From IMG/VR virus record IMGVR_UViG_3300044858_003017: DNA of 64,000 bases; one strand, written 5' to 3'. Shown in pieces: positions 1,538 to 4,883 of the stretch. Source of the stretch: a virus. The notes under the pieces are model-generated. The model worked only from the letters and a program-made list of their open reading frames with translations, searched no databases and was not told the origin of the DNA. Every line of letters starts with the position of its first letter. Positions within the stretch are counted from its first letter, which is position 1. The position numbers were made by a program, and so were the translations under genes.

Positions 1538-3775
1538 TTATATTACGTACCATTCATTAGATGGTCTAAATTTCATTACCCAATATTCAGGAGTACCTGT
1601 GTTTTGATAATAAGCATGGCCTAAAATTCTAACATATTGTCCGGCAGTTGTAGGTACATTTGTTGACATTGTATTTCCTGCACTTTCTCTAATATATATT
1701 GGTAATCCATGGTCGATAAGTTGAACCGAAGGTGTATCAGTATACGTACCATCATTTACTGTAATCGATCCTTCTAATATTATTCTAGCTCCGCCGCCCG
1801 TCGAGGCACATATACCTAAAAGTTTAGAACAGTCTGCAGTTGCTTGGGTAACAGGATGCCATTTTCCGTCTGTTTCCAAATATACTAAATCAAATAGAGC
1901 CGCTGCCCCATCTAACTGTCCTGTTATTACTTCTCCTTCATAGTTAAATGTCGTTGCAGGTACATCTGAAAATGATTCTTGGGTGTTTGACCCAATAGAT
2001 TTTCTTAGATACGTAGAAGCGTCTATTTTGTAGTTATTAGTAATAGCATCCCAACTTAAAACATCAAATCCACTTTGATCAGCTAATAACCTACTACTCC
2101 AATCAATTGAATAATTAGTACCACTTGTATCATATGCTAGTCTATTTGCCCAGTCTATACTTTGAACTGATGTAGCGTCATATAATAACCTACTACCCCA
2201 AGCAATTGAATTAGCGGTACCTGTTGCATCAAATAAAGTCCTTCCACTCCAATTGACAGCAAATATACCCATATCATCAAATAACGTTCTACCATCAGCA
2301 TCAAAGCTGCTAGTACCCATTACATCGTATATAGCTCTAGAAAAATTACCTATAGATATGGCATTAACATAATTTAATCCATCAAATGTTTGAGTTGTAA
2401 ATGAACCAGTTACTCCCAATGAACCTGAAATTTGCGCATCACCATTGTATGGGAATGCAGGTGTACTTGGAGCATATGAAGCACTTAAAGCATTAGTTGC
2501 ATAAGAAGCAGTTCCAAGTAAGCTTCCCGTAAATGAAGTTGAATTTATTGATGTTAATCCCGTTAATGATGTTGCAGTGTCGCCTAAATCTATATTAGTC
2601 GATCCAATTGTGATGCTACTATTTGCTAACTGTGCATTTAATATACCTGCAGTTGCTGATAAATTAGATGTTGTTAATCCGGTAATAGTTCCGCCTAATA
2701 CGATTGTGCCTGCACCGGTAATCGGGCCGCCCGTTAAAGTAATTCCAGATACAGAACCTGACGTATCTACTGATGTTACTGTTCCTCCGCCGGCTGCTAA
2801 ATTGGTTGAAGCGCCGCCGCCACCTGTTGATATATCTAAATAAAATCCTCGAGCAGTACCCCCTTGTTCAAAAAATCTAAGTCTATTTTGAAATACATCA
2901 ACTGTTACACCACTACCTGTAAGAGATGTGTTAGTAGCAGCTTTTCCTAATAGAATTTCTCCACCCTCATCACCGACACCATAAAGTACGCTTAATGTTT
3001 GACCATTAAATGTTAAATTACCTTCGCCATTTAGTGTTCCGTTGCCATTAGCAGTTATTACTTGAGTATCTACGTCATTTGCAATAGCAGGTGCTATGTT
3101 TGCAGCTGTTGATGCAAATGATGAGCTTATTACATTTTGTATTGAAGATGTTGCAATTGGAATTGCTACGCCATTACTATTTCCAACCCAAGTAAAGCCT
3201 TGTTGTATGTTTGGAACTTCATTGTAATATGCTGGACCGTTAATTACACCTGATCCGTTCGATGCATGAGACTTTTCAACATTGCCTAATTTTTGTATTA
3301 ATACTCCAGATCCAGTTGGTCGAACATTTGTATATCCTCCACCTCCTGCAACATATATTGAATCGCCTGCTGCAAATGCAGATGTATTAACGTTGCCGAT
3401 ATATCCATTAATGAGACCAACACCTTCTGCGCCAGCTATTAATGTTTCTCCTGCAATTACACCTGCCGGCATTCGAGTTGGATCTGCAGCATCTGCTGGC
3501 CAAACTCCTGCAAGATTTCCAGATGTACCTGATCCCGTAATATAGCATGGGGTTCCTTTTGCAATAGTTATGCCAGAAACGTTTTTTATTACTATTGCAG
3601 TATTTTCTACAGGAGCAAATGAAAGATTACCAGCTCCATCTGTTATAATTACTTGACCTACAGTGCCATCTATATCAGGATAGTTTAGTCCGCTAGCGGT
3701 AAAATTAGAAGTTACATTTAATGAATTTAACGCAGCATCAGAGCCAGACGTTATGACTTTTTTCCATGAGGGCAT
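1538..3775 (-). CDS. Long tail-fibre-like protein
   Basis: 745 aa G/S/T-rich, internal S(I/V)xWxxRxLxD repeats, TASYA motifs; N-terminus paralogous to 4056..4883. Confidence 0.65.
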   Translation of the reverse strand: MPSWKKVITSGSDAALNSLNVTSNFTASGLNYPDIDGTVGQVIITDGAGNLSFAPVENTAIVIKNVSGITIAKGTPCYITGSGTSGNLAGVWPADAADPTRMPAGVIAGETLIAGAEGVGLINGYIGNVNTSAFAAGDSIYVAGGGGYTNVRPTGSGVLIQKLGNVEKSHASNGSGVINGPAYYNEVPNIQQGFTWVGNSNGVAIPIATSSIQNVISSSFASTAANIAPAIANDVDTQVITANGNGTLNGEGNLTFNGQTLSVLYGVGDEGGEILLGKAATNTSLTGSGVTVDVFQNRLRFFEQGGTARGFYLDISTGGGGASTNLAAGGGTVTSVDTSGSVSGITLTGGPITGAGTIVLGGTITGLTTSNLSATAGILNAQLANSSITIGSTNIDLGDTATSLTGLTSINSTSFTGSLLGTASYATNALSASYAPSTPAFPYNGDAQISGSLGVTGSFTTQTFDGLNYVNAISIGNFSRAIYDVMGTSSFDADGRTLFDDMGIFAVNWSGRTLFDATGTANSIAWGSRLLYDATSVQSIDWANRLAYDTSGTNYSIDWSSRLLADQSGFDVLSWDAITNNYKIDASTYLRKSIGSNTQESFSDVPATTFNYEGEVITGQLDGAAALFDLVYLETDGKWHPVTQATADCSKLLGICASTGGGARIILEGSITVNDGTYTDTPSVQLIDHGLPIYIRESAGNTMSTNVPTTAGQYVRILGHAYYQNTGTPEYWVMKFRPSNEWYVI

Positions 3776-3790
3776 AGTATATTCCTTTCG

Positions 3791-3852
3791 TGTTGCGGTT
3801 GGTTACATACACTTATGCCGTGCGTGTGCCCACTTCCTTGCGGCCTACAACA
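3791..3852 (-). ncRNA. Candidate structured cis-regulatory RNA in the 5' UTR of the fibre gene
   Basis: GC-rich island between late motif (3858-3866) and AAAGGA/ATG; closing stem UGUUGU(A)GG/CCGCAACA, CC-GCAA-GG GNRA hairpin, and an UGG..ACACGCAC/GUGUAUGU..CCA arm. Confidence 0.55.
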
Positions 3853-3865
3853 TTTATAATAAATA

Positions 3866-4042
3866 TCACTGTTTTAGATATTGCTCTTGTAGTTTCAATA
3901 TGATGTTATAAAATGTTTCTACATGTTCTCCGCGGATGGAAACATCTTTAAGTATTGTTAATAAAAATTCAATTTCTTGTTTTGTTAATTGAACGGTTGT
4001 TTCGGGGGCGGATTGTGATTTTAATTTGTCTAATATGCTCAT
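3866..4042 (-). CDS. Small hypothetical protein, 58 aa (possible fibre chaperone)
   Basis: Not in ORF track; MSILDKLKSQSAPETTVQLTKQEIEFLLTILKDVSIRGEHVETFYNIILKLQEQYLKQ*, fills the gap between co-oriented genes. Confidence 0.7.
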   Translation of the reverse strand: MSILDKLKSQSAPETTVQLTKQEIEFLLTILKDVSIRGEHVETFYNIILKLQEQYLKQ

Positions 4043-4055
4043 AACTTATTTAATT

Positions 4056-4883
4056 TTATACGTAAATGAAAATGTCTCCGGTGTTTGTATCAACGTGTAT
4101 CGTTCCTTGACCTGCACCAGATCCTCCATAGATTGGTGCTGCACTAGGAGCAACTGCACTAGTTTCTACCGCTCCAGCATATACTGCGGGAACAAAAGAA
4201 TTACCTGTTGAATTAAATGATGAAGTAAACCCCCAACGTGTTGTGCCACTATCATAACCATACAATTCGCCAATGTTTTGCGTACCTTGTTGTACTACAA
4301 TACCACCATCGCCCGTTGTATTAGACCCCGATGCAAACAATACAAAACGGTCGCCTACTAATAAATTTTGCGTGTTTTGAAATGATGCTGTACCTAATAC
4401 AACTAAATTACCCGTTAATGTTAATCCAACAAATGTAGGAGAGTCTCCCGTTTCTAAACCTAAATCTATAGTTGATCCAGCAACGCCGTTATTTGTAAGA
4501 AGTGCTTGACCTTGTCCAGGACTTGATAATACAGATGATGAAATTACCGTGCTACCCGCTAATATTTGTGCTTGTGTTACGGTACCACCTAACGCTGTTG
4601 CATTTCCAGCAATCGTTATGCTAGAATTGGTTAAACTTGCATTAGGAATTCCACCTAATGTAAACGTAATAGAATCAGCACCTGCATTACCTACAATGTT
4701 TAAACCTGCACCTGATGATGATGCAAATGTAAGCGTATCTGCGGAGCTATCTGCTAATACGTCAATTCCATTAATTGACATCGTTGCGAACGATCGAACC
4801 GATGATGGTGTTAAATATCCAGCATCATTATTTAATTGTGATATGTTACTACCCGATACTACTACTTTTTTCCAAGTTGCCAT
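4056..4883 (-). CDS. Tail fibre/structural protein
   Basis: MATWKKVVVSGS N-terminus shared with 1538..3775; late motif at ~4901-4909. Confidence 0.6.
   Translation of the reverse strand: MATWKKVVVSGSNISQLNNDAGYLTPSSVRSFATMSINGIDVLADSSADTLTFASSSGAGLNIVGNAGADSITFTLGGIPNASLTNSSITIAGNATALGGTVTQAQILAGSTVISSSVLSSPGQGQALLTNNGVAGSTIDLGLETGDSPTFVGLTLTGNLVVLGTASFQNTQNLLVGDRFVLFASGSNTTGDGGIVVQQGTQNIGELYGYDSGTTRWGFTSSFNSTGNSFVPAVYAGAVETSAVAPSAAPIYGGSGAGQGTIHVDTNTGDIFIYV

Follow-up and report, generated by a model that had tools for sequence, protein, structure and literature searches.

What lies in the 91-nucleotide (nt) gap ahead of the tail-fibre-like gene of the IMG/VR virus record IMGVR_UViG_3300044858_003017, and does it act on that gene? 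We analyzed a 64,000-nt stretch of this record, referred to here as the window; in this part of it every gene is coded on the minus strand. The gap, at positions 3776–3866, is flanked upstream by an open reading frame (ORF) of 58 residues (3866–4042, minus) and downstream by one of 745 residues that begins MPSWKKV (1538–3775, minus). An initial annotation, made from the letters alone, had placed a compact multi-stem RNA in this gap: a GC-rich three-way junction, one arm of it GNRA-capped, situated at the 5' end of a late transcript and belonging to one of two paralogous fibre genes. Its RNA words are the exact minus-strand reading of 3776–3866, the element is indeed GC-rich (54% G+C compared with approximately 33% for the window), and the ViennaRNA fold agrees with the proposed junction, the CC-GCAA-GG mini-stem included. 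Comparison with homologous leaders indicates that this is almost certainly a real, conserved structured RNA. It is a member of a large, uncatalogued family of three-way-junction RNAs of approximately 55–70 nt, present in one copy per phage genome. On balance we think it probable, judging from the sequences, that the element controls translation of the fibre message in cis, the riboswitch and protein-operator cases included.

The stability of the single sequence would argue against a structured RNA. ViennaRNA gives −18.8 kcal/mol with a z-score of −0.48, and 60 of 200 shuffled sequences are equally stable. Because this result is not significant, folding energy was dropped as evidence, and the conclusion that the fold is more than a chance occurrence is drawn from homologues instead. 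Approximately 100 distinct leader sequences were gathered in total. We aligned 37 homologues, none of the window's own subtype, using MAFFT and without fitting them to any structure; a three-helix structure was written from this alignment and a covariance model of 56 positions, R1, was built on it. The window's sequence is absent from the R1 seed alignment. R1 matches the window at 3789–3853 on the minus strand over the full model (positions 1–56) with 46.9 bits and an E value of 1.3e-12, which delimits the whole leader element. With filters off, R1 gives no second credible match in the 64-kb window, and no repeat of the element core was found there.

The aligned sequences vary in the manner expected of paired strands. 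Pairing cells in the MAFFT alignment amount to 95.2%, compared with 27–49% when the partners are slid by 1–3 columns. Two-sided changes are observed in 12 of the 19 pairs, and the covariation score is 0.313 versus 0.138 in shuffles, with none of 500 shuffles scoring as high. In the closing stem, P0, six of the eight pairs show two-sided changes across the family. The same pattern is present in a second alignment of 52 distinct model-aligned sequences, which, unlike the MAFFT alignment, leans towards the structure: A-U is replaced by G-C in P0 in 25 sequences, GG/CC by GA/UC in 11, and UGG/CCA at the base of the second arm, P2, by UAG/CUA in 14. A G-U pair in P2 is kept in 46 of these sequences and becomes A-U in the other six, and a U-G pair occurs in P0 in 18. 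Since the conserved G-U pairs can form on the sense strand only, the fold is that of the sense strand and hence of RNA, not of a DNA cruciform or an antisense transcript. The untranslated regions upstream of MPxWKK orthologues, which the initial annotation had suggested aligning, thus display both conservation and covariation.

The family structure consists of P0 (for example AUUAU-U-GG with CC-AUAAU), a first arm P1 (CC...GG, often with a GNRA loop), the junction strand AAG, the arm P2 and a single junction A. P1 varies in length and sequence, with a constant CC/GG closure. P2 is built of UGG, a G-U and a C-G pair, a variable stem-loop, an AA bulge and CCA. The junction formed by these parts is nearly invariant, GG / AAG / UGGGC ... 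GU-AA-CCA / A / CC, and the window's element has all of these words. On the minus strand of the window, the 5' strand of P0 reads UGUUGU, a bulged A and GG (3844–3852), and the fold pairs it with 3791–3798. The P1 mini-hairpin CC-GCAA-GG, capped by its GNRA loop in the ViennaRNA fold, follows at 3836–3843, and AAG, which occupies invariant alignment columns, at 3833–3835. The P2 arm spans 3800–3832, with the UGG/CCA base helix, the conserved G-U and C-G pairs, the AA bulge on the 3' side and a variable upper stem; its apical loop is 9 nt long, ACGGCAUAA. The junction A and the 3' strand of P0, CC-GCAACA, are at 3791–3799, as placed by the fold and the covariation. Direct reading then gives AAAGGA, a weak Shine-Dalgarno (SD)-like word, in an unpaired linker at 3783–3788. 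As the initial annotation had stated, the element is not a terminator: there are no terminator-like sites in 3500–4300, and no U run follows any stem. Two other candidates were rejected. A tRNA, or tRNA mimicry by the CAUAA loop, was discarded on finding no ARAGORN genes in 3500–4100 and a loop G where tRNAs have U33. Pairing of AAGGAAGUG, as an SD-like word, and of CCAACC with 16S rRNA was judged by eye to suffer from a central mismatch or from a target helix buried in the ribosome.

Where else does the element occur? The first 59 residues of the fibre are 74.6% identical to a 'putative tail fiber-like protein' of Flavobacterium phage vB_FspM_immuto, whose isolates are the only cultured phages that share the fibre N-terminus at an E value of 1e-3. 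The leader of immuto has the words GGAAGUGGGC ... UAACCAAYCG in common with the window; the hairpin between them differs and is still self-complementary. A pattern scan of IMG/VR with these two core words gave at least 117 loci, and an independent fetch through the first 200 fibre residues gave 80. The element is present in all 80 loci fetched through the MPxWKK N-terminus. Among the at least 117 pattern matches listed, 57 are real copies, all of them before an MPxW(K/R)K gene: 55 of the matches listed stand 14–35 nt before an ATG-CCN-NNN-TGG-AAR start, and in two of the 57 real copies a homing endonuclease gene separates the element from the fibre gene. Across the family the element lies 12–24 nt upstream of the AUG. 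Each of five phage records of 95–160 kb, the complete immuto genome included, contains one copy, and no extra copies were found in approximately 0.9 Mb of flanking phage DNA.

A scan of bacterial genomes with the same pattern gave, among the at least 120 matches listed, 119 chance matches and one real copy. The latter (L231) is on contig NZIO01000021.1, 14,947 bp long and binned as a Candidatus Pelagibacter metagenome-assembled genome, where a strong SD (AGGAGG) precedes an MPNWKK start. Because this copy also precedes an MPxWK start, the contig may be phage DNA carried into the bin. Every real copy we found is placed before the MPxW(K/R)K gene class. The N-terminus with this motif is the sole part of the downstream protein that is conserved together with the RNA; at their C-terminal ends the fibres of different loci show no relationship, and the 745-residue protein has no Pfam or PHROGs family. 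Within the window the restriction to one of two paralogous fibre genes, noticed initially, holds as well: the MAxWKKV paralogue at 4056–4883 has just the ATATTTAT motif discussed below. The window stretch is present in many lake-water metagenome DNA runs. In lake-water contigs the summed depth rises five- to six-fold on the element alone, with contigs of other phages piling up at 3794–3864, and the loose contig ends at 3776 and 3850/3857 read into other leader variants. This depth jump and the variant ends suggest that many co-occurring phages share 3794–3864.

The pile-up at 3794–3864 and the pairing of a conserved leader and N-terminus with unrelated fibre C-terminal parts would also fit a target for recombination or homing that acts as DNA, at the 5' border of an exchangeable fibre cassette and with no RNA function. 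In two contigs, the space that separates the RNA from the fibre ORF is occupied exactly by a free-standing homing endonuclease gene, one HNH (81 residues, L012:1550–1861) and one GIY-YIG (241 residues, L095:10522–11315). We find this explanation scarcely credible. A DNA site bound by protein would keep its sequence rather than its pairing, whereas here the stems covary with the pairing kept, and the conserved G-U would be an A-C mismatch on the other strand. The HNH ORF of L012 begins with AUGCCAAAU, which is the fibre start that it has captured, and at its other end it runs into the start of the fibre gene proper. The element marks both a conserved site of entry for homing endonucleases and a conserved border of exchangeable fibre cassettes.

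How might an RNA in this position act on the fibre gene? We compared the arms with the region from −2 to +6 around the fibre start codon. A perfect complement of at least 4 nt is present in 60 of 83 unique elements, compared with 22.6 ± 3.8 in shuffled targets (maximum 35); in GC-matched coding windows the rate is 35%. For complements of at least 5 nt, the count is 34 of 83 versus 4.6 ± 2.0 in shuffles. The word GGCA occurs in the arms of 44 of the 83 unique hairpin pairs, and any permutation of it in 0–15. Scanning the offset of arm complementarity gives a peak at AUGCC. In the window's subtype the P2 loop, ACGGCAUAA, faces UAUGCC(GU) over 6 bp, extended to 8 bp in four relatives with CCG as second codon; the loop word GGCAUA (3814–3819, minus) and its proposed target UAUGCC (3771–3776, minus), which is the fibre start codon with its flanks, form a calculated duplex of −8.7 kcal/mol. 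In a second subtype it is the P1 loop, (UU)UGGCA, that is complementary to UGCCA(AA), over 5–7 bp. The presence of a GGCA-type word on either arm makes a flexible downstream strand a more likely partner than a fixed tertiary site. Anti-start pairing would also account for the different starts of the paralogues, AUG-CCN in the one with the element and AUG-GCA in the one without.

These observations can be accommodated in a model in which the GGCA-type word of one arm pairs with the start site when the junction is folded. In the window, GGCAUA of the P2 loop would pair with UAUGCC; in lineages that use SD sequences, the 3' strand of P0 would also cover the first SD bases. The near-invariant junction would be the site at which an effector sets how often this gate opens, and the effector could be a small molecule, a phage protein or the ribosome, such as one finishing translation of the upstream ORF in members whose P0 directly follows that ORF's stop codon. 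We infer from the position and complementarity of the element that it acts on translation, that the folded state is the off state, and that an effector exists.

Several observations weigh against start-site gating. Anti-start complementarity is shorter than 4 nt in 23 of the 83 unique elements. In a third, common subtype the word sits at the border between the P2 stem and loop, with the GG of GGCA in the stem rather than the loop. An energy-based scan of hairpin-mRNA duplexes has its minimum at the start site and similar lows at the GC-richer positions +33 to +39, so part of the duplex signal comes from composition; exact-word tests were used instead. The counts are phylogenetically non-independent, with two lineages giving most of the longer matches. 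The protein fixes AUG and CC, which therefore cannot covary with the loop, and the positions that flank AUG and CC match the arm word only sometimes. The one metatranscriptome sharing words of the region, represented by contigs only (share 0.07), leaves 3368–4148 uncovered. Folding of the leader together with coding sequence points both ways. In favour of gating, when 40 nt of coding sequence are added to the window's leader, the minimum-energy fold (−24.6 kcal/mol, compared with −12.9 kcal/mol for the junction fold) gives up the junction and joins P2 and the start region in a 12-bp helix. In this helix AUAUAC (3777–3782) pairs with GUGUAU of the P2 3' strand (3807–3812), extending the loop-start pairing to 12 bp; the extension is also present in locus L145, and the 12-bp helix is not conserved in the window's closest relatives. 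Pseudoknot-free folds of the leader plus 30 nt show pairing between start and element in a minority only.

The phages that carry the element differ sharply in their use of SD sequences. An SD-like word precedes long ORFs in 62% of cases in one contig class and 5% in another, compared with 11% in immuto and 26% in the window; the contigs at 5% and 11% are Bacteroidota-like. In the SD-rich contigs the P0 3' strand AUAAGG overlaps the SD, AAGGAG. This class (L014, L017, L020, L031, L044, L047, L051, L064, L093, L098, L101, L102, L107, L116, L117) is characterized by a long P1 with a UGGCA loop and a short P2; it has no promoter-like word, and the upstream stop codon abuts P0. These features suggest that the hosts initiate translation under a different regime, and they point to translational coupling as a possibility. 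That the junction remains nearly invariant despite such different SD usage suggests that its partner is universal or phage-borne.

A universal partner would suit a small-molecule riboswitch, a special case of the gate in which a ligand stabilizes P0 and the junction and thereby shuts or opens the fibre start. We regard this as possible, though unlikely. The anatomy is aptamer-like, with variable, covarying stems around approximately 20 invariant junction and bulge nucleotides; in lineages that use SD sequences P0 overlaps the SD, a role played by P1 in translational off-switches; and the differing SD usage, in suggesting hosts with different initiation regimes, favours a universal effector. 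On the other side, no metabolic gene is ever associated with the element: the downstream gene is always a fibre gene, and the context gives no ligand. Nor was the element seen before a bacterial gene, the single real copy among the at least 120 matches listed from the bacterial collection being the one before an MPxWK start. Known aptamers do not account for it either. Rfam 15 searched at E 10, on 1.8 kb and on 101 nt, gives nothing on the element, neither an aptamer nor helix 8 of the signal recognition particle (SRP) RNA nor any other model, so that no strong match removes its novelty. The SRP and c-di-GMP-II words seen initially were described at the time as fitting neither RNA fully, and we concur. 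UGGGCAC and AACC.ACC presumably flank a hairpin in the c-di-GMP-II consensus too, which we take as a lead only. The c-di-GMP-II model (RF01786, gathering threshold 53.5 bits) leaves the element of the immuto genome untouched, its sole hit there being an unrelated site at E 0.9. It has 84 positions compared with 56 here, and the A and C that follow UGGGC are covarying, unconserved stem positions in the fibre-leader family.

Closest in outline is the glutamine-I riboswitch, which is found in aquatic microbes and controls translation through a ligand-dependent long-range contact. It shares with the fibre leader a three-way junction of approximately 60 nt, with a closing stem, a GNRA arm, a purine-rich junction strand, GGAAGU(A)GG, and a second arm (PMC5393176). 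The likeness does not extend to the details. The junction strand of the crystallized RNA is GGAAGUAAGG (PMC5393176), compared with GGAAGUGGGC or GGAAGUAGGC in the fibre-leader family, and the 3' junction strands are unrelated. In the glnA RNA the strands GAAGUAA (junction) and UGAAGC (3' side) form an E-loop (PMC5393176); at the same place the fibre leaders have a covarying Watson-Crick helix, in which G-C changes to A-U in 14 of 52 sequences. The gene context of glutamine-I is nitrogen metabolism, and here it is a tail fibre. Its model (RF01739, gathering threshold 35 bits) finds nothing at E 10 in the five element-bearing phage records or on the window's 101 nt. A narrower form of the riboswitch proposal, that the junction of an orphan phage riboswitch binds a host metabolite or signalling nucleotide and so sets the amount of one of two alternative fibres, seems to us somewhat less likely still. 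If true, a phage would sense the condition of the cell it has infected and alter the mix of receptor-binding proteins on its progeny, and the same aptamer would work in phages with sharply different SD use and probably in hosts of different initiation regimes.

An invariant core within variable stems, a three-way junction and a frequent GNRA arm are also the outline of a hammerhead, and small ribozymes are common in phages. A small self-cleaving ribozyme here would separate the fibre gene from the upstream part of the polycistronic late message. We consider this extremely improbable: no hammerhead, twister, twister-sister, pistol, hatchet or hepatitis delta virus-like model matches the element, its junction strands are 0, 3 (AAG) and 1 nt (A) long, and the CUGAUGA box of the hammerhead is absent.

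Structured leader RNAs that control virion genes are, to our knowledge, rare, and we know of none catalogued for tail fibres. The core words of the element were not found in an RNA context in the literature searched, and the main text of a virome-wide survey of structured RNAs (PMC10690425) makes no mention of tail, Flavobacterium, Bacteroid- or riboswitch. The fibre-leader RNA is abundant in lake and marine viromes and belongs to the gene on which host recognition depends; its near-invariant junction implies a specific partner, which makes it a candidate for a new class of ligand- or protein-sensing RNA. With a size of approximately 60 nt and a cultured representative, phage immuto, it offers a test object for how phages of SD-poor Bacteroidota tune the translation of late genes. 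New here are the anti-start enrichment, the position of P0 over the SD, the small-protein gene upstream and the homing-endonuclease insertions.

Does the element begin a transcript, as the initial annotation had assumed? The window contains 36 copies of the motif ATATTTAT, compared with 21 ± 4 expected; 31 lie on the coding (minus) strand, and the motif often stands just before ORF starts, for example at 1523, 3859, 4902, 8249 and 9227. It looks like the late promoter word of this phage. The copy at 3859–3866 (minus) shares one base with the upstream ORF, the final one of its stop codon, and lies 6 nt before P0, so a 5'-end position is plausible for the window. Across the family, a TAT(T/G)TAT word ends 11–18 nt (mode 13) before the GG of P0 in approximately 70 of 102 unique members, which is approximately 4–6 nt before the P0 stem and would put the transcript start at the foot of that stem. 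The generalization fails for about a quarter of the members: 25 of 102 have no promoter-like word within 60 nt, the stop codon of the upstream ORF abuts P0, and the element is inside a polycistronic unit.

Two alternatives to control of initiation draw on this arrangement. The element could be a 5'-end stabilizer or processing signal that protects the late transcript from RNases dependent on the 5' end, with no effect on initiation. A transcript starting at the base of the closing stem in approximately 70% of unique members would favour such a role. We think it improbable, as the members without the motif stand directly after an upstream stop codon, a simple hairpin would suffice for protection, with no call for an invariant junction of approximately 20 nt, and the anti-start complementarity is left unexplained. 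The second possibility is an antiterminator like put of phage HK022, in which a nascent two-arm RNA of approximately 65 nt, just downstream of a phage promoter, acts in cis; here the RNA would bind RNA polymerase and carry it through terminators of the fibre operon. The size of approximately 60 nt, the two hairpin arms and the nearby promoter-like motif agree with this, and RNA polymerase is conserved as a partner from one host phylum to another. It is nevertheless very improbable. The fibre leader has no sequence similarity to put and nothing in Rfam, and no terminator-like site is nearby in the window. Its constant tie to a start codon 12–24 nt downstream, to which it is complementary, distinguishes it from put and would be superfluous for an element of transcription.

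Could the partner that sets the translational gate be a phage protein? A small ORF of 50–105 residues with a shared core, roughly L-[TS]-x-x-E-[IL]-x-F-[LI]-L ... [IF]-x-G ... K-L, is located directly upstream of the element in nearly all of approximately 100 unique loci, which makes small-protein gene, RNA and fibre gene a recurrent triad. In the window this is the 58-residue ORF, single-copy and adjoining the element on its upstream side. Its product is confidently predicted to be a helix-loop-helix hairpin (predicted local distance difference test score 84.8). In phage Mu, the com gene likewise directly precedes the structured RNA by which the mom start is hidden. The Mu com/mom and the T4 gene 32 and RegA operators all place a structured leader or intercistronic RNA over the start site of a late gene, as proposed here, and the small regulator gene of Mu has the position of our 58-residue ORF. 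There is no kinship in sequence or fold between these operators and the fibre-leader RNA.

In an operator of this kind, a phage protein would bind the junction and open or close the start; the candidates are the helical-hairpin protein and surplus fibre protein, acting through the N-terminus that is conserved along with the RNA. We hold this to be quite unlikely. Com belongs to the zinc-finger proteins; the small protein of the window, with 7 basic and 8 acidic residues, is slightly acidic, and sequence and structure searches give no sign of RNA binding or of a known RNA-binding fold: it has no Pfam, PHROG or named homologue, and its matches among Protein Data Bank folds are only generic helical hairpins. 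It may equally be a fibre chaperone or adaptor. As for the fibre protein, the paralogue has the WKKV N-terminus without the RNA. Genes for the small protein are also present at L001 4761–4985 and 5059–5241 (minus), and immuto carries two of them in tandem.

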